Assembly: GCA_958295875.1 (NCBI GenBank)
Contig: OY282379.1
Coordinates: 2,569,046 to 2,633,045 of the forward strand
DNA from: an uncultured Pseudomonadales bacterium
GTDB taxonomy: Bacteria > Pseudomonadota > Gammaproteobacteria > Pseudomonadales > Azotimanducaceae
Length of the DNA stretch: 64,000 nt
Reading direction: 5' to 3'
Shown: one piece after another, positions 29,860 through 36,727 of the stretch
Numbering within the stretch: position 1 is the stretch's first letter
How the letters are laid out: every line of letters begins with the position of its first letter
Made by a program: the position numbers and the translations under genes
Notes under the pieces: generated by a model
Told to the model about the DNA's origin: nothing
The model's input: only the letters and a program-made list of their open reading frames with translations
Database searches by the model: none

Positions 29860-31043
29860 GCGGGGTGAGGTGGCGCTGGCGACGGGAACCCGCCGCCAGC
29901 GCCGGATCGGGTAGCCTCAGTGAATGCGAAGTCACTGGTGGAGACCCGAGCCATGCGAATCGAATCGATGCGGATCAGATCGTACCGCAGTTTCAGGGTG
30001 GACGACGCCGAACTGCCGGCCGAGGCCCGCGGGCGCCTGTCGGCGATCCGCCGGTTCGATGGGCTGCGCGCCGCCGGCTGCGCCGAGCGCGCCGCCTTGA
30101 GGGAGGTCGGCGTCAGCCGCCGCACCCTGTATCGGTGGAAGGCCGCGCTGGCCGCCGGCGGCCAGCGCGGCCTCGCGCCGAAGTCCACCCGACCGCGCCG
30201 CGTCCGCCGCCCGGCGCGCAAGCCGGGCGACGTGAAGGCGGTCATGGCCATGCGCCGCAAGCACCCGTTCATGGGCAAGGCGCCCATCCAGCGCATGCTC
30301 GAACGCCAAGGCCTGCGGCTGAGCGCGTCAACCGTCGGGCGCATCCTCTCGCGCGCCATCGCGGACGGGACCGTGCCCCCCGCCAGCCTCTGCGAAGGAC
30401 GGGCCAAGCCCAAGCGCCCCCGCAAGTTCAACGGCTGGGCGCGGCGCTGGAAATACGGCGACAAGGCCGAGCGCCCGGGCCAGCTCGTCCAGATCGACCA
30501 CATGACCGTCTCCCGCGACGGCAGCTCCATCAAGGAGTTCCGCGCCATCTGCCCCGTCAGCCGGTTCATGGTCGCCCGCGCCTTCTCCCGCGCCACCGCC
30601 GCCACCGCAGCGCGCTTCCTCGCCGTCGTCGCCGAAGCCCTCCCCGTGCCGCTGGAGTCCGTCCAGGTCGACGGCGGCAGCGAGTTCATGGCCGGCTTCG
30701 AGGACGCCTGCAGGAACCTCGGCGTCGCGCTGCGCGTCCTGCCGCCGCGACGGCCGCAGTGGAACGGCTGCGTCGAGCGCGCCAACCGCACCGCCCGCAT
30801 CGAGTTCTGGAACCTCCTCGACTGCGACCTCACCGTCGAGGCCGTCTCCGAGAGGCTCCTCAAGCGCGAGTTCTTCTACAACTACATCCGACCGCACTCC
30901 GCAATCGACTACCGATCCCCCAACGAGTACCTTGTCGCCCACGAGGCTGCCCAGCCTCAGTGCCAGATGTCATGAACCGGTTCAGCCCCTTGACCTCGCG
31001 GGAGCCTTGGCGCTAGGTTGCGGTCGGCCAATTGGACTCACAG
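29860..31043 (+). mobile_element. IS481-family insertion sequence (boundaries tentative)
   Basis: It carries a single transposase ORF. Weak terminal inverted similarity exists (GGTGAGG... at the left, ...ACTCACAG at the right). A possible 5-bp direct repeat CGATG lies at 29855..29859 and 31044..31048. Confidence 0.4.
29920..30975 (+). CDS. IS481-family transposase (DDE integrase core)
   Basis: HTH region: VGVSRRTLYRWKAALAAGGQRGLAPKSTRP. DDE core: LVQIDHMTV, VQVDGGSEFM, RPQWNGCVERANRT. Confidence 0.85.
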   Translation: MNAKSLVETRAMRIESMRIRSYRSFRVDDAELPAEARGRLSAIRRFDGLRAAGCAERAALREVGVSRRTLYRWKAALAAGGQRGLAPKSTRPRRVRRPARKPGDVKAVMAMRRKHPFMGKAPIQRMLERQGLRLSASTVGRILSRAIADGTVPPASLCEGRAKPKRPRKFNGWARRWKYGDKAERPGQLVQIDHMTVSRDGSSIKEFRAICPVSRFMVARAFSRATAATAARFLAVVAEALPVPLESVQVDGGSEFMAGFEDACRNLGVALRVLPPRRPQWNGCVERANRTARIEFWNLLDCDLTVEAVSERLLKREFFYNYIRPHSAIDYRSPNEYLVAHEAAQPQCQMS

Positions 31044-31045
31044 CG

Positions 31046-32392
31046 ATGCCAGATAGCCAGCTAGATTGGCGGAAGCTCCTCTGCTCGACGCGGCGGAAGG
31101 AGATCGCACGAAAACGACACTGCGGTCAAGCCGCATCCGCCGGCACCCACGTCTGCGCCGAAGAGATTGAGCACGATTACGACAGGATCCTTTCCTCGAC
31201 CTCAACGCGTCGGCTGGCTGACAAGACGCAACTCTTCCCTCCTGACACGAATCGCTCTATTAGTACCCGTTTAACGCACTCGCTCGAGGTCAGCAACTTA
31301 GCCCGCAGCATCGGCGTTCGGCTTGCCCATGATCATCGCCACGACGTGTTTGGCGAGCTTGCCGACAAGCTGCAAGCGGAACGAACGGTTCCCGCGTTGC
31401 TAGCTGCCGCGGGCCTTGCACACGACCTCGGCACTCCACCTTTCGGCCATCCAGGCGAAAAGGCCATTCGCCTGTGGTGCAAGACCCGCGGCATCAAACT
31501 CAAGGATTTTGCCGAGTTCGACAGCAATTGCCAGACGTTCCGCCTCCTGACGCGCCTTCAGATCCTTGACGGCAATTTCGGCCTAGACCTGACGTGCGCC
31601 ACGCTCGCCACGTCGCTCAAGTACCCAGCCTTCTCCAACGACCTAAGTGGCTTCAAGAAGTTCGGGATTTTTGAACGCGAGCGCAACATAGCTCACGAAG
31701 TATGGGATCAAACCGGCCTCGCCGAGGGGGTGCGGCACCCTTTGGCCTACATCGTGGAAGCATGCGACGACATTGCTTACTCCGTAATGGACGTCGAAGA
31801 CATCGTAAGAATGGGCTACGCATCCTGCAACAACGTAATGGATTTCCTTGCGCAAAGTTCAGATGCCAAGACTAAAGCCGTGAGGAAAAGAACCCTAAAT
31901 GAGTGTAAGGTGTTTGCAAGTAAGAAGAGCCAGCGGCATTTGGATGAGCAATCTATGCTGGTGTTTAGGACCATTTCCATTTCTGAGATGATAGAATCGA
32001 TTACTAGAACGTTCGTTTCCCATATCGATCAGATACTCAAGGGAGAAGTAGATGGCGAATACAAGCTCGTTCCAAAATCCGACGTTGCGGAACTCTGTTG
32101 CCGGCTTAAGAAGTTTGGTAGACGTAGAGGATTCGAGCATCGAGATATATGTCAGCGGGCGATGAAGGACAAGAAGCAGGTCAGAGAAACGATGGATTAC
32201 CTCTGGTGTGGCATCGCGAATCCGGATCGAGGTAGCGCTTATTCGCGCCTGCCTGAGATTGACCGTCGAGCGTACGAAGTGACCTCTCGTTCTTGGTCCG
32301 ACAAGTTGCACCTGCTATGCGACACCGTTGCGAGCATGACGAATAGCGAACTGATCTCTTTACGCGACGACCTCAAAGGCATTCTGCAGTAG
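31046..32392 (+). CDS. dGTPase-family HD-domain deoxynucleoside triphosphate triphosphohydrolase-like protein
   Basis: LDWRKLLCSTRRKE is a Dgt-type N-terminus. RLTHSLEVSNLARSIG and GLAHDLGTPPFGHPGE are HD motifs, and ACDDIAYSVMDVED is also present. The GC content is visibly lower than the flanks. Confidence 0.8.
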   Translation: MPDSQLDWRKLLCSTRRKEIARKRHCGQAASAGTHVCAEEIEHDYDRILSSTSTRRLADKTQLFPPDTNRSISTRLTHSLEVSNLARSIGVRLAHDHRHDVFGELADKLQAERTVPALLAAAGLAHDLGTPPFGHPGEKAIRLWCKTRGIKLKDFAEFDSNCQTFRLLTRLQILDGNFGLDLTCATLATSLKYPAFSNDLSGFKKFGIFERERNIAHEVWDQTGLAEGVRHPLAYIVEACDDIAYSVMDVEDIVRMGYASCNNVMDFLAQSSDAKTKAVRKRTLNECKVFASKKSQRHLDEQSMLVFRTISISEMIESITRTFVSHIDQILKGEVDGEYKLVPKSDVAELCCRLKKFGRRRGFEHRDICQRAMKDKKQVRETMDYLWCGIANPDRGSAYSRLPEIDRRAYEVTSRSWSDKLHLLCDTVASMTNSELISLRDDLKGILQ

Positions 32393-32419: not shown

Positions 32420-33343
32420 TCAGGAGATCTCGCCAAGAGAGTTGCCCAAAAGAAACACTAGTACGAGTACCACCGGCAAAATAGTCCATCTCCCCCAAAT
32501 GGCATCGCGCAAAACAAGCATTAGGGCGGAAGTAGAGAGTGCGAGTGATAGAGCAATTGCCCCAATTCGGACCCAAGCGCTTAACTCAGGAATGGACTGT
32601 AGGGCATCACTTTCACGACCGACCAAAACAGCAAACAAGACTCCGAGCAATGTAATGACGAGCGTAGAGAAGTAGACCGCTTGTGACCTAACATCGTCCA
32701 CTGCCTTTGCTACTTGTTTAGCGCGTTGCTCTACTTTCGTAACCCTTTCCCCGTATTGAGACAATGCGGACTCATGTGCGCCATGGGGAGCGACGCTTTC
32801 GATGTCCCGTGGGGGTAATGATTCAAAAGGCTCGCATTGAGAGGCGGTGTAAGGAGTGCTCTTTACGAAGTCGATCAGCGCAAGCTTATCGCCCCTCTTG
32901 AGCTTTACGGATCTTCTAGAGAGATTGTAAATGGGACACGCCAGCTTCCCGATGTATCCGGGGTCAACCTGCGCTGCCCCCACCCACAGCAGCCCCTTGT
33001 ATGCTAGCTTAACCTTGATGTTCCACCTTGCAATCATGAACCTAGGGATGCAGAGATGTTCTAGAGTCTCTATAACGACTACCTCGTAGGGTTCGATTTC
33101 GAAAGTGTCAGCGTCTTGCAGTTCCTCCTTTTGCAAACCGCGGAAGTAACGATCTCCAACCCGCATCTGGTAGCCAGCTGGCTCAAGGCTGTCCCTAGAG
33201 AAGGGATGTATCATGCAATGGCTGTCGACGTAGCATTCTATCCGATTGCTGAGCAGCACGCCGTATTCGGACGGATAGGGGTCATATTCTAAGGTACGGA
33301 GGTCGACCTTAGATACGCTATTCGGGCGGACTGCGGCCATCAT
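32420..33343 (-). CDS. dCTP deaminase / dUTPase-fold protein with C-terminal coiled-coil and three TM helices
   Basis: The Dcd-like core is LLSNRIECYV...IHPF...LEPAGYQMRVG...IEPYEVVVIETLE...VDPGYIGKLACPIYN...LKRGDKLALIDF. The C-terminal TM segments are AVYFSTLVITLLGVLFAVLVG, WVRIGAIALSLALSTSALMLVL and WTILPVVLVLVFLLG. Confidence 0.7.
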   Translation of the reverse strand: MMAAVRPNSVSKVDLRTLEYDPYPSEYGVLLSNRIECYVDSHCMIHPFSRDSLEPAGYQMRVGDRYFRGLQKEELQDADTFEIEPYEVVVIETLEHLCIPRFMIARWNIKVKLAYKGLLWVGAAQVDPGYIGKLACPIYNLSRRSVKLKRGDKLALIDFVKSTPYTASQCEPFESLPPRDIESVAPHGAHESALSQYGERVTKVEQRAKQVAKAVDDVRSQAVYFSTLVITLLGVLFAVLVGRESDALQSIPELSAWVRIGAIALSLALSTSALMLVLRDAIWGRWTILPVVLVLVFLLGNSLGEIS

Positions 33344-34441
33344 TCAGACTCCAGTTAGGCTCGTCGTTTGCAGCAGTGAACGGTCATGTCTGCGTGTGTT
33401 GTTAGCGTCAATGCTCGTGCGCGTATCGAAATCTGAACGTGGCACCAGCTTGGTGGGTGACGTTCCGACCCAATCGAATGTCCTCCCGATGCTCGCTTCA
33501 AACGAGGCGACAGTGACTTCCCACGACGGGGGCAGGGTAGTGGCGGCGGCCGTCTGATCAAAGTAGTCTACATGATTAAGCACTAGGTGGGTCGCGCCGT
33601 TGGCGTCAATAGCCTCCTTAACGATGGCTGGATCGAATCGTGCCACGCGGCGGACGCACTTGGTCACCGATGAAAGCTCGGATAGGTGCGCGCGACCACA
33701 ATTGATGCCGATAGTGCGCCAGTCGGTCTCGAATGGCAGCGGGCCGGAGTTGCCGCTCACTCGGATCGGGAAGGCCCGCGCAACGAGGACAATGCAGTCA
33801 ACCTCAACAGGGCTAAGTCCGGCTTCGGCGACGAACGCGGCGGCAGTGGTATTGCGGCTCGTAACGTAGGGGTAATGGCTCGATAGAAGGTTGGAGAGCC
33901 CGAAGCCTTGTGTGCCCTCGATTAGAACACGCTCTCCGCGATCCAAGGCGGCCCGGATCAGCGGGCGGGTGGGCCGAACGAAACGGGCGATATAGCTATC
34001 GTCGGAAGCCCAATGCACGGCGTTGGAACGTGAGACTCGATCCATTACTGCTGCGCCCGTGCCGCTAGCGGTCGATCCGATCCGAGCCCTAAGCGCTGAG
34101 CTTCTCTCCTTGCTCTTATGCTCGTCGGTGATGACCATCGCACGTGGATCTATCACCAGCCTGTCTCGAGGGAGGTCGATGCGCTCCACGTCTTGCCGCA
34201 GCGCTTCGGCGTCAATGTAGGAGCCGGGGCCGAGCACGCATAGGGTATCTTGAAGGAGCGCGGCTGTTGGGAGGTGGCGGAAAACATGCCGGCGACCATC
34301 GCTGCCGTAGGCCGTATGGCCAGAGTTTGAGCCGCCCACGCGGATAACAATCGTGGCCTGTTGGTGCTGCGCCAAGAACAGCGCGACCTTGCCCTTGCCC
34401 TCAGAGCCAAACTGGGCGCCGGCTACCACGGTTACGGGCAT
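33344..34441 (-). CDS. Adenylosuccinate synthetase (PurA) family protein, divergent, PurZ-like active-site substitutions
   Basis: By-eye alignment to E. coli PurA gives these matches: FGSEGKGK vs PurA GDEGKGK; GGSNSGHT vs GGHNAGHT; IGSTASGTG vs IGTTGRGIG; EGTQGFGL...YPYVTS vs EGAQG...YPYVTS. ATG at 34441 overlaps the upstream stop by 10 nt. Its stop abuts the next ATG. Confidence 0.75.
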   Translation of the reverse strand: MPVTVVAGAQFGSEGKGKVALFLAQHQQATIVIRVGGSNSGHTAYGSDGRRHVFRHLPTAALLQDTLCVLGPGSYIDAEALRQDVERIDLPRDRLVIDPRAMVITDEHKSKERSSALRARIGSTASGTGAAVMDRVSRSNAVHWASDDSYIARFVRPTRPLIRAALDRGERVLIEGTQGFGLSNLLSSHYPYVTSRNTTAAAFVAEAGLSPVEVDCIVLVARAFPIRVSGNSGPLPFETDWRTIGINCGRAHLSELSSVTKCVRRVARFDPAIVKEAIDANGATHLVLNHVDYFDQTAAATTLPPSWEVTVASFEASIGRTFDWVGTSPTKLVPRSDFDTRTSIDANNTRRHDRSLLQTTSLTGV

Positions 34442-36552
34442 TGGCCGTCTCTGCGAAGATGTGTCGTCACGATCTCGTCGCAGACACAAAGAGCGTGATG
34501 TTCTCCCTCGTTAGGGAGGATTTGATCCGCTAGCTGCCGCAGCTTTTCGACCCCCTGCTCAACATCATGGTGGCTTGTGTCGTCGAAGTCGGCATGAGGC
34601 CCGTTTCGCTGAACAAACCGCTGTCGTCGGACATCGGCGGACACATCAAGATGGACATGGGTGAACGCTGGGCCATAGCGCTCTAGCCAGAAAGCGCGGT
34701 CTTCCGGCCATCGCAGGCCATCCACAACGAACATCTGCCTGCTGTCGCCGTAACGGGCAAGCAGCTGGCGGTTGAGCCATCGTTGCCCTAACTCAACGTG
34801 GATACTCTGGCCGACCTCTTGGAGCGTCTGCCTAGTAGTGCCCCTGCCTTGCCTCACTGCCTCGTCTGCCACCACTTGGCTATAGCGACCATAAGTGAGG
34901 CCCCGCTTCTCCAACCCATGTGCGACGGTTGTCTTGCCCGAAGAAATCGGGCCACTGACGCCGACTACGAGCCGGCCGTGCCACTGCGTCTCCCGGCCCT
35001 CGTCGGAAACTCTCGGAATGATCAAGTAGTCTTCATCCTCGTTCCCTAGCGCCTCAAATCGGCCTGACCAGAAGAACAGCCCAACAATGGCGGACGTGAT
35101 GGCATCGAGCTCGTCGTGTTTGGGGTTGGCGTCCGGTGAAACCGAGCGTCCTTCAAGGCCAAAGCGGCGGAGACCCTCCTTCAATTGCACAAGGCTCGCC
35201 CGTTTTCGCGGGATGTCCATGATGTCTTGGGCGGCGCCGGGATAACTCTCTATCACCGGGATGCCCAAAGCCCGGATTTTGGCCGCTAAGCCCATGCCAC
35301 GATCAGTGAGTTTTTGCATGCTGGGGATCAAGCAGGGGTACACGTTGATGCCCCGGCGTTTCAACATACGCTCACACACCCGCATGATGCCAAATTCGGC
35401 GCGACCGGGGTCGTCGTCATCAACACGGATGCGGCCTCGCGGCAGCGAAAGTGGCGAGTCGATCGACACGAGCTGGGGTTTGATGGCGGCTATGGCCTCT
35501 AGCATCTCCGCGTCCGTTCTAACCATGCGCGTTTCGACGCGGCGGCCCTTGAGCTCGCACCATCCGGATGGTCGGTGCTCCGAGCCGGTGAGGTCGATGC
35601 CGATCACAGTAATGGCATCACCACGAATGTAGTCCACTAAGTCCTCGTAGGTCGCCTTGGGGCCAGTTCGGCCTCGGAACTGCGGCACGTCAATGACGTT
35701 GATGCCTTTGGCGCCACGCTTGAAACATACCGACGCCCTAGCAGACGCGAATGGAGCGGGCGGATTAAGTCGCTGATTCTCGCCGAGGCGCCGGATGGTC
35801 TCGTCGAGGATGGCCTTCATGCCTTCCACATCTGAATGGTTGTATTGGACCAAATCGTGGCCAGCGCGTAAGTCGCCATTCCTGTACTCGTACCAGAGCC
35901 GCACGGCATCCGCACCAGTGGCATCGCTGATTTGCTCGGGACGTTCAAAGCGCAACTCGCGCTCGATCTTCTTTTGGCCGCCCTTCAATTGCGCCCGCCG
36001 GGCGAAGTAGCGTAGGTCAACATGTGCGCGAGGCAGGTTTGCGCCGCTTTCTAGCCTCGCCAGAAACTTCAAATCGAAAGCTGTGCCGTTAAACGTAACG
36101 AGACACTTGGCGTCGTTCAACAGATCATGCCAGACGCCTGCGGACGTATCTGGGAACCAACAGGCGTAGCGCTTGCCCCTCGATAGGCCGATCAGCGTGA
36201 TTTCGTCGTAGTAGAGGCTCAGGCCGGTCGTCTCGATGTCCAAGAACACGGTGTCGTCTGGGAAGGTTGTGGCTATTCTGTAGTGCTCTCGAGATGGGAG
36301 CCTAGCGGCGAAGTAGTCCGCGTCCTTGTCGGAGAGCGCATATCGGGAAGCTTCGATGGCAGCCAAGCAGTCGTCGCGAGCGGGAGCGAACAGATCGGCT
36401 GGCGGCCGGCGGGCTTCTTCGAGATCAGACCAAGTTAGGATGCCCTCTCCCCACAAGCGCCTCTCCGTGCGCAGGCCGATCCTAGGGAGGTGGATGAACG
36501 TATGTTCGAGCGGGCAGCGGTTCAACTCCACGTCATCCTCGTCTTGCCCCAA
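34432..36552 (-). CDS. Three-domain fusion: YprB-like RNase H-fold 3-5 exonuclease, DUF429-like RNase H-fold domain, and P-loop nucleotide kinase-like domain
   Basis: Exonuclease domain: VFLDIETTGLSLYYDEITLIG, LVTFNGTAFDLKFL and YNHSDVEGM (DEDD-like). DUF429-like domain: VIGIDLTGSE...HDELDAITSAIVG. Kinase-like domain: VVGVSGPISSGKTTVA...VVDGLRWPED. The start is TTG at 36552. Confidence 0.75.
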   Translation of the reverse strand: MGQDEDDVELNRCPLEHTFIHLPRIGLRTERRLWGEGILTWSDLEEARRPPADLFAPARDDCLAAIEASRYALSDKDADYFAARLPSREHYRIATTFPDDTVFLDIETTGLSLYYDEITLIGLSRGKRYACWFPDTSAGVWHDLLNDAKCLVTFNGTAFDLKFLARLESGANLPRAHVDLRYFARRAQLKGGQKKIERELRFERPEQISDATGADAVRLWYEYRNGDLRAGHDLVQYNHSDVEGMKAILDETIRRLGENQRLNPPAPFASARASVCFKRGAKGINVIDVPQFRGRTGPKATYEDLVDYIRGDAITVIGIDLTGSEHRPSGWCELKGRRVETRMVRTDAEMLEAIAAIKPQLVSIDSPLSLPRGRIRVDDDDPGRAEFGIMRVCERMLKRRGINVYPCLIPSMQKLTDRGMGLAAKIRALGIPVIESYPGAAQDIMDIPRKRASLVQLKEGLRRFGLEGRSVSPDANPKHDELDAITSAIVGLFFWSGRFEALGNEDEDYLIIPRVSDEGRETQWHGRLVVGVSGPISSGKTTVAHGLEKRGLTYGRYSQVVADEAVRQGRGTTRQTLQEVGQSIHVELGQRWLNRQLLARYGDSRQMFVVDGLRWPEDRAFWLERYGPAFTHVHLDVSADVRRQRFVQRNGPHADFDDTSHHDVEQGVEKLRQLADQILPNEGEHHALCVCDEIVTTHLRRDGQCP

Positions 36553-36637: not shown

Positions 36638-36727
36638 TGGCGGAGAGGCAGGGATTCGAACCCTGGGTGCCCAAAGGACACACCTGATTTCGAGTCAGGC
36701 CCGTTCGACCAACTCCGGCACCTCTCC
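36638..36727 (-). tRNA. tRNA-Ser (anticodon CGA), CCA encoded
   Basis: A 90-nt cloverleaf was folded by hand. Acceptor: GGAGAGG/CCTCTCC. Anticodon arm: CCTGA-CTCGAAA-TCAGG. Long variable arm: GTGTCC-TTT-GGGCAC. T arm: CAGGG-TTCGAAT-CCCTG. Confidence 0.9.

Follow-up and report, generated by a model that had tools for sequence, protein, structure and literature searches.

A predicted membrane-anchored DCD-fold protein without the deaminase glutamate is encoded beside a PurZ-like enzyme in a scattered cassette of bacteria and archaea

Introduction

Several prokaryotic defence systems act through transmembrane (TM) effectors that are gated by a nucleotide, such as Cap15 of CBASS, PycTM of Pycsar and Cam1 of type III CRISPR. 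To our knowledge, neither a sensor of the DCD/dUTPase fold nor a PurZ-like synthase has been described for systems of this kind, and the PurZ-type enzymes that we know of so far come from phages that substitute 2-aminoadenine for adenine. Here we report on a gene located in a stretch of 64,000 nucleotides of contig OY282379.1 (assembly GCA_958295875.1, positions 2,569,046 to 2,633,045), from an uncultured Pseudomonadales bacterium of the Azotimanducaceae; this whole stretch is called the window below. The gene, which we name DCD-TM, encodes a protein with a DCD/dUTPase fold followed by hydrophobic helices, and it lies directly after a gene for a PurZ-like homologue of adenylosuccinate synthetase, within a compact cassette found in bacteria and archaea.

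Phages with the PurZ0 enzyme encode Dut-fold DutZ enzymes, which hydrolyse dATP and dGTP to deoxynucleoside monophosphates (dNMPs) (PMC12884076). Modified dNMPs can moreover serve as danger signals: the PUA-Calcineurin-HAD defence system senses m6-dAMP, and conflict-system operons have been noted in which such sensors are linked to an adenylosuccinate synthetase for a modified base (PMC12871103). The cassette reported here appears to be undescribed so far, a literature search that covered few subscription journals, and whose results for DUF429 mostly concerned DUF4291, having returned no description of a PurZ-like enzyme together with DCD-TM. A preliminary description of the gene, made from the sequence of the stretch, had dealt with the fold and its membrane part. 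We consider the pairing with a cellular PurZ-like enzyme a more important result than the fold; this context was absent from that description and is decisive for the reading of DCD-TM.

Results

Pairing of DCD-TM with a PurZ-like gene

The two genes are arranged as follows in the window:

32420..33343, minus strand: DCD-TM, 307 amino acids (DCD fold domain at about 28-161, linker or 'arm' 162-192, stalk helix 193-222, three predicted TM helices 223-303)
33344..34441, minus strand: PurZ-like adenylosuccinate-synthetase homologue (PF00709, E 2e-48; P-loop motif FGSEGKGK)

The TGA stop codon of the PurZ-like gene abuts the ATG of DCD-TM, whose open reading frame (ORF) starts with ATG-ATG, and a GGAG sequence is found 9 nucleotides (nt) upstream. 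Synteny was compared over 87 genome loci, 80 of which come from scanning a single genome for each species and 7 from contigs found by the exact protein. The PurZ-like gene stands directly before DCD-TM in 81/87 loci, and of the six loci that lack it, no fewer than three are contig ends. The other neighbours are DUF429 (62/87 loci), RNase_H_2 (61/87), a kinase (51/87) and, in 4/87 loci, a dGTPase. All seven exact-protein contigs display the same order, exonuclease(-DUF429)(-kinase), PurA-like, DCD-TM, and their cassettes are inserted in unrelated surroundings, for instance between infC and rpmI or near dnaA.

The pairing was also recovered from the side of the enzyme. A profile scan of metagenomes for the PurZ-like protein yielded 80 loci, and a DCD-like gene, in most cases of a second clade described below, follows directly downstream in 57. 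Among the other 23, 14 have less than 1.3 kb of downstream sequence and 9 have room for the gene, which gives 57/66 for the loci with enough downstream sequence. DCD-TM is not a stray Dcd: its pairing with the PurZ-like gene is obligate, in a compact and widely scattered cassette.

Against NCBIfam, the PurZ-like partner scores 239 bits with the PurZ model NF038379, whose cut-off is 300, and 244 bits with the archaeal PurA model NF003295. Its best matches in the PDB are archaeal PurA (171 bits), 7VF6 (164 bits; labelled 'PurA-like adenylosuccinate synthetase', with the motif QFGSEAKG), phiVC8 PurZ (120 bits) and S-2L PurZ (97 bits), and its top phage matches are the Ghobes-type phages that carry PurZ0, at about 40% identity. 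In 69 cassette partners, the position of PurA Asp13 is occupied by Ser in 57 and by Gly in 12, never by Asp, and the P-loop is intact. Only this change is diagnostic, because the position of PurA His41 already varies, being Thr in archaeal PurA and Pro in 7VF6.

Fold and membrane part of DCD-TM

Residues 28-161 of DCD-TM form a DCD/dUTPase fold. Residues 32-160 match Pfam PF22769 'DCD' (E 1.2e-14), and a phmmer search of PDB sequences returned 9LN0 (E 4.9e-16) and 8Y1W (E 2e-13); the NCBIfam model of dCTP deaminase, TIGR02274, gives 60.6 bits, under its cut-off of 92.8, so that the family threshold is missed. A single-chain AlphaFold2 model, built from an alignment of 117 homologues, has a predicted local distance difference test score (pLDDT) of 86.5 and a predicted TM-score (pTM) of 0.70. 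It consists of the beta-domain 28-161, a linker of lower confidence (the arm 162-192, pLDDT about 77-83) and helices 193-242, 252-280 and 285-306. The top Foldseek match of this model in the PDB is the dUTPase of T. pacificus, 8Y1W (E 4e-13, TM-score 0.85 on the target, root-mean-square deviation 1.6 Å), followed by the archaeal dUTPases 9LN0 and 9LN3, and then by Dcd and bifunctional DCD-DUT structures (1XS1, 2QLP and 1PKH, E about 1e-11). Furthermore, hhalign pairs DCD-TM with E. coli Dcd at a probability of 91%. The Dcd/dUTPase fold that the preliminary description had proposed for the N-terminal part is thus borne out by the profile match, the PDB search and the structural comparison; its alignment by eye of VDPGYIGKLACPIYN with IDPGWSGCIVLEFYN of E. 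coli Dcd (VDPGY.../IDPGW...) is recovered by hhalign.

The C-terminal part had been described as a coiled coil followed by three hydrophobic helices, and this agrees with our results: the coiled coil falls inside helix 193-242 of the model, and the Kyte-Doolittle profile has three peaks, at 223-241, 260-278 and 281/288-303. At least two TM segments follow the fold domain in 106 of the 109 homologues that could be scored, three being the most frequent number.

Remodelling of the pocket

The residues of the active site were compared with those of E. coli Dcd by hhalign, and their frequencies were taken from the alignment of 117 homologues:

Position 110: Lys or Arg, 97% of homologues
Position 111 (E. 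coli Ser111): Val, 99%
Position 115 (E. coli Arg115): Tyr, 100%
Position 125 (E. coli Arg126): Gln, 99%
Position 127 (E. coli Asp128; motif-III Asp of dUTPases): Asp, 100%
Positions 136-137 (E. coli Glu138 corresponds to 137): Cys-Pro, 100%

All three residues of the deaminase triad (Ser111, Arg115, Glu138) are replaced across the family, at 99% or more for each. The loss of the catalytic Glu, already reported in the preliminary description, holds: Glu138 of E. coli Dcd is placed opposite Pro137, which is invariant. Its reading of the substrate loop, in which GRSS was aligned with ARWN, is four residues off and has to be corrected. Both hhalign and phmmer, the latter with archaeal dUTPases, pair G-R-S-S or I-R-S-S with I109-K110-V111-K112, and the longer E. 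coli segment G-R-S-S-L-A-R corresponds to I109-K110-V111-K112-L-A-Y115. The motif-II Ser of dUTPases is lost as well, the loop being K/R110-V111-x112, and neither clade retains this Ser. Part of the arm seems to be preserved, with an aromatic residue at 173 in 89% of homologues, a basic residue at 179 in 83% and Ser192 in 99%; positions 173 and 179 align near Y171 and K178 of E. coli Dcd.

In all, 26 residues are invariant in the alignment, R106, Y115, D127, P137, N140, D158 and F159 among them, and R106, W107, Y115, W120, D158 and F159 are invariant residues new to DCD-TM. This pattern looks like remodelling of the pocket under constraint and not like decay, and from the pocket residues the domain is predicted to keep a nucleotide-binding fold yet to be unable to deaminate.

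Conservation, selection and distribution

Searching 5.8 billion proteins gave 245 homologues of DCD-TM. All of them carry PF22769 and go by 'deoxycytidine triphosphate deaminase' or 'hypothetical' in those sources that give a name. Among 1.84 billion representative sequences, a profile search identified 386 clusters (50% identity) at E <= 1e-30. The family is real but rare, since only these 386 clusters were found among so many representatives. A search of expression data found the DCD-TM sequence only in the source sample, apparently not an RNA run.

The ratio of non-synonymous to synonymous substitution rates (dN/dS) of DCD-TM against three homologues is 0.23; taken by region, it is 0.11-0.18 for the fold domain and 0.25-0.32 for the TM part. 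Among distant homologues, identity is 56% in the fold domain and 16-19% in the linker, stalk and TM helices. The ORF of DCD-TM is a genuine gene under selection. When the gene is compared with its closest relative (L010:8001-8891; loci are cited by number), the synonymous divergence dS is 1.41 in the DCD domain and 0.12 in the TM part, and the proteins encoded by the genes upstream of DCD-TM are 87-98% identical between the two loci. This points to a mosaic gene, with a putative recombination breakpoint inside it and a swapped nucleotide-binding domain.

In the metagenomes, a second DCD-like clade follows PurZ-like genes (L090-L169; for example L094:6983-8035 and L095:7070-8074). Its members are 24-35% identical to the query, 300-390 amino acids long, and have one predicted TM segment, so that a TM module is present throughout, with three helices in the first clade and one in the second. 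Common to both clades are R106, N108, G117-L-L, D127-P-G, P137, N140-L-[ST], [DE]158, K161 and S192. The arrangement of a DCD fold without the Glu, joined to a membrane anchor and placed after a PurZ-like gene, is old and conserved, because it is found in both clades. Many phyla are represented among the hosts, which include Pseudomonadota, Acidobacteriota, Binatia, Chloroflexota, Eremiobacterota and Clostridia and, among the archaea, four lineages, namely Archaeoglobaceae, Halobacteria, Methanosarcinales and a metagenome-assembled genome of the Promethearchaeota.

A 231-amino-acid 'dCTP deaminase' on an Acuticoccus plasmid (L170, NZ_CP133481.1 5167-5862) was set aside as belonging to a different context, being 28% identical, stand-alone and without a PurZ-like neighbour. 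The block around this plasmid gene encodes a MazG-domain protein, a uracil-DNA glycosylase and a thermonuclease.

Variants of the cassette

In four loci without DCD-TM (L120:5898-8408, L166:2198-4558, L162:6950-9130 and L141:5920-7656), the gene after the PurZ-like gene encodes a protein of 726-836 amino acids, composed of a conserved helical N-terminal domain with the motifs GWNSGG and SGIWPKYFP and of a Cdc48-type AAA+ domain (PADLOC IetA, 1e-14 to 1e-16). A hidden DCD domain in its N-terminal part was rejected, the hhalign probability being 0.2%. This AAA+ protein, beside which a deoxynucleoside kinase (dNK) is often encoded, may be an alternative terminal module of the cassette.

Upstream of the PurZ-like gene, a 1000-amino-acid fusion of PolX (HHH_8, thumb), PHP, DUF429-like and kinase parts (L162:2981-5983) replaces the RNase_H_2-DUF429-kinase protein, and in L081 (3790-5454, 554 amino acids) and L086 the kinase is fused to the PurZ-like enzyme itself. 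The kinase is functionally linked to the cassette, because it occurs as a fusion with either the exonuclease or the PurZ-like enzyme. In L081 and L086, a DUF7002 protein (3e-61; L081:5461-6123) and an unknown protein of 299 amino acids precede DCD-TM, and DUF7002 (PF22531) also stands before the cassette in L001:3926-4612 and L003:4232-4918. Its FFW motif suggests that DUF7002 corresponds to the 'Lmac_3114' DarT-like ADP-ribosyltransferase family, which is reported to neighbour adenylosuccinate-synthetase domains in 60% of cases (PMC12522546). Such exchanges of partners are typical of modular conflict systems, and the position of DCD-TM is open to other presumptive effectors. Defence-type neighbours are present in some loci: dGTPase, MADS, Cas1 and the DarT-like DUF7002.

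A protein of about 262 amino acids (P0121, L061:8916-9704; N-terminus YVGDLGDFGKFGLLR) adjoins DCD-TM in 19/87 genome loci and 16/80 metagenome loci. It had no match in Pfam, NCBIfam, PADLOC or PDB sequences, and it is absent from the window.

Locus in the window

The other features around DCD-TM in the window are:

34432..36552, minus strand: 706-amino-acid fusion of an RNase_H_2 exonuclease of the YprB/MrfB-type DEDDh kind, DUF429 and a P-loop nucleotide-kinase-like domain (PF13482 7.5e-27; PF04250 4.6e-5; AAA_33/AAA_18/CoaE)
31046..32392, plus strand: Dgt-family dNTP triphosphohydrolase, dGTPase-like (PADLOC dGTPase 1.5e-65; TIGR01353 246 bits against a cut-off of 152)
36638..36727, minus strand: tRNA-Ser(CGA) (ARAGORN), one edge of the low-GC island
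29920..30975, plus strand: IS481-type transposase (Pfam HTH_32, rve_3, LZ_Tnp_IS481), the other edge of the island

The fusion gene shares 10 nt with the beginning of the PurZ-like gene; the kinase part of the fusion has a weak PADLOC match to dCTPase (1.5e-8) and one to PDC-S44 (2e-8). The GC content is 54% at 32-34 kb, while the surrounding region is at 65-70% and the flanks at about 67%. The dGTPase gene is convergent with DCD-TM, at a distance of 27 nt. It was rejected as a core component, being found beside the cassette in 4/87 loci, closest relatives only, and is probably either a defence gene in its own right on this island or an accessory gene comparable to DatZ. A prophage Z-cluster was rejected too, as phage genes flank the cassette neither in the window nor in the 7 inspected loci.

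Discussion

The suggestion of the preliminary description that the protein is not a metabolic Dcd is well supported by the replacement of the triad throughout the family, by the low-GC island at a tRNA gene and by the sporadic PurZ-like operon. We propose, with a probability of roughly 0.4, that DCD-TM is a nucleotide-gated membrane effector, the terminal component of the cassette. A sensor joined to a membrane effector, as put forward earlier, fits the architecture, the conservation of the fold domain and the replacement by an AAA+ protein in variant loci. In this reading the cassette spreads horizontally across bacteria and archaea and most likely acts against phages or other mobile DNA; we infer this defence role from its distribution, island context, modularity and some of its neighbours.

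We infer the ligand, the trimer and the effect on the membrane in the following way. The PurZ-like enzyme and the kinase would make an unusual purine (deoxy)nucleotide, perhaps from dNMPs released by the exonuclease, and the DCD domain would bind this product at inter-subunit sites. Once a Dut or Dcd enzyme has bound its nucleotide, its C-terminal arm becomes ordered over it. Ligand binding in DCD-TM could likewise order the arm 162-192, which is continuous with the stalk helix, and the change would then be transmitted to the TM helices and compromise the membrane, as in abortive infection. Because the arm physically joins the fold domain to the stalk and TM helices in the model, it would offer a simple route from ligand to membrane. 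The presence of the AAA+ protein in place of DCD-TM is the pattern that an exchangeable terminal module would show.

Possible, if rather doubtful, is a wider proposal, in which the cellular PurZ-like enzyme generates the signal or poison of an unrecognised immune pathway, and a retired trimeric DCD/dUTPase domain reads a modified (deoxy)purine nucleotide, such as an N6-succino or 2-amino derivative of adenine, and gates the membrane effector through its arm. If true, the enzymes of phage Z-genomes (PurZ0 and its Dut-fold helpers) and the cassette would share an origin.

Several observations weigh against a membrane effector. The single TM helix of the sister clade could be a mere anchor, and neither DCD-TM nor the PurZ-like protein has a matching PADLOC model. 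The flanking genes are mostly housekeeping genes, with a modest enrichment in defence genes (115 flanking ORFs scanned). Judged by alignment, the invariant Asp127, the basic residue at 110 and the partly kept aromatic 173 and basic 179 would fit a working phosphohydrolase equally well. Hence DCD-TM might instead be a membrane-tethered dNTP pyrophosphatase of the dUTPase type (dNTP, deoxynucleoside triphosphate), its TM helices serving only to localise it, a reading also offered in the preliminary description; we regard it as the main rival, conceivable and somewhat less probable than the effector. Such an enzyme would supply the PurZ-like enzyme with a dNMP made from dGTP, dATP or another dNTP, or clear a competing dNTP, in the manner of DutZ or MazZ. 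By both sequence and fold, DCD-TM is closest to archaeal and rudiviral dUTPases, in which the Glu is missing too; Asp127 never varies, and some of the arm residues seem to be preserved. The pairing of a Dut-fold enzyme with PurZ0 in phages is a biochemical precedent (PMC12884076), and it is to those same PurZ0 phages that the PurZ-like partner has its closest phage matches, at about 40% identity. On the other hand, both clades have Val or Ile where motif II should carry its phosphate-contacting Ser, Arg115 has given way to Tyr or His, and Arg126 to Gln. The supply step would also be redundant, as the exonuclease of the operon already yields dNMPs; DpoZ and phage genes are absent from the cassettes, and there is no known reason for one to three TM helices in every member of a family of metabolic enzymes.

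The same objections from the catalytic residues apply if DCD-TM is seen as a gatekeeper, a self-protection or 'house-cleaning' enzyme that hydrolyses or sequesters a toxic purine dNTP analogue with which the cassette poisons phages. The kinases of the operon (a nucleoside monophosphate kinase-like domain, and dNK in some loci) would agree with this, the PolX-PHP-kinase fusion of one variant points to triphosphates being produced and put to use on DNA, and DCD is a dNTP-binding fold; yet the tethering to the membrane would go unexplained and evidence of a toxin-antitoxin kind was not found, which makes this role quite improbable. A role outside defence, with DCD-TM as a membrane-associated accessory enzyme in DNA salvage or in cellular purine-base modification (a base resembling Z in the DNA of the host or of a plasmid), would agree with the PurZ-type signature of the partner and with the mostly housekeeping flanks. 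We nevertheless hold it to be improbable, considering the patchy distribution across domains of life with only 386 clusters, the position of the window copy in an island at a tRNA with an insertion sequence element, the modular and exchangeable partners, which include the IetA-like AAA+ protein and DarT-like DUF7002, and the fact that most loci have no dedicated DNA polymerase. Finally, the loss of canonical catalytic residues might be taken as the sign of a decaying Dcd/Dut paralogue fused by chance to hydrophobic sequence. Selection and conservation already contradict this, with a dN/dS of 0.11-0.32 in every region, 26 residues invariant in 117 sequences and an architecture conserved in two deep clades and two domains of life, so that decay is hardly credible.

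A cellular PurZ-like cassette with a membrane-anchored, deaminase-dead DCD protein would add a sensor/effector fold to prokaryotic immunity, and may also add a new signal chemistry. It is moreover a lead on the origin of the phage Z-base pathway. Even if DCD-TM were a tethered pyrophosphatase, about 400 clusters annotated as 'dCTP deaminase' would be mis-named. The three-gene cassette is small enough for direct testing by cloning.

Comparison with known systems

The closest proteins to DCD-TM are the archaeal and rudiviral DCD-type dUTPases (8Y1W, 'P45' 9LN0/9LN3, S. tokodaii 2ZDC and SIRV dUTPase), at 28-33% identity, with which it shares the DCD beta-fold, the VDPG[WY]xG motif with its Asp, the xYN motif and the lack of the deaminase Glu. 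These enzymes are soluble, about 155 amino acids long, and have R-S-S-L-A-R as motif II, whereas the DCD-TM family has K/R-V-x-L-A-Y and adds to their plan the invariant R106-W107-N108, C136-P137 and D158-F159, as well as the stalk and three TM helices. E. coli Dcd and the DCD-DUT enzymes of M. jannaschii and M. tuberculosis have in common with DCD-TM the fold, a counterpart of Asp128 and, it seems, some of the C-terminal arm. The differences lie in Ser111 to Val, Arg115 to Tyr, Arg126 to Gln and Glu138 to Pro, in the membrane anchor and in the location of the gene on an accessory island.

The DutZ, MazZ and DUF550 proteins of Z-genome phages resemble DCD-TM in that a gene of the Dut superfamily stands beside a PurZ-type synthetase, and the partner of DCD-TM carries the Asp13-to-Ser signature. 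In Ghobes, two dUTPase genes are found near PurZ0. DutZ is a classical soluble Dut, encoded in a phage genome with DpoZ, whereas DCD-TM falls in the DCD branch, carries TM helices and has no Ser in motif II. DCD-TM is moreover part of cellular cassettes of three to four genes, with the exonuclease-DUF429-kinase protein, located between unrelated host genes and with no phage genes seen.

Among defence systems, the anti-phage dCTP deaminase (a kinase with a zinc deaminase; PADLOC dCTPase, NF041025) was considered, and DCD-TM had no PADLOC match to it. The PUA-Calcineurin-HAD system differs from the cassette in its PUA-like sensor and its dNTP-depleting filament effector, and has no DCD-TM protein. 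Signal synthases (CD-NTase, cyclase, Cas10, TIR) were not found in the window operon with Pfam, PADLOC and NCBIfam, the partner there being the PurZ-like enzyme. The likeness to the nucleotide-gated TM effectors lies in the architecture and in the gene order: a cytoplasmic domain with a nucleotide-binding fold is joined to one to three TM helices, and its gene stands right after that of a nucleotide-modifying enzyme.

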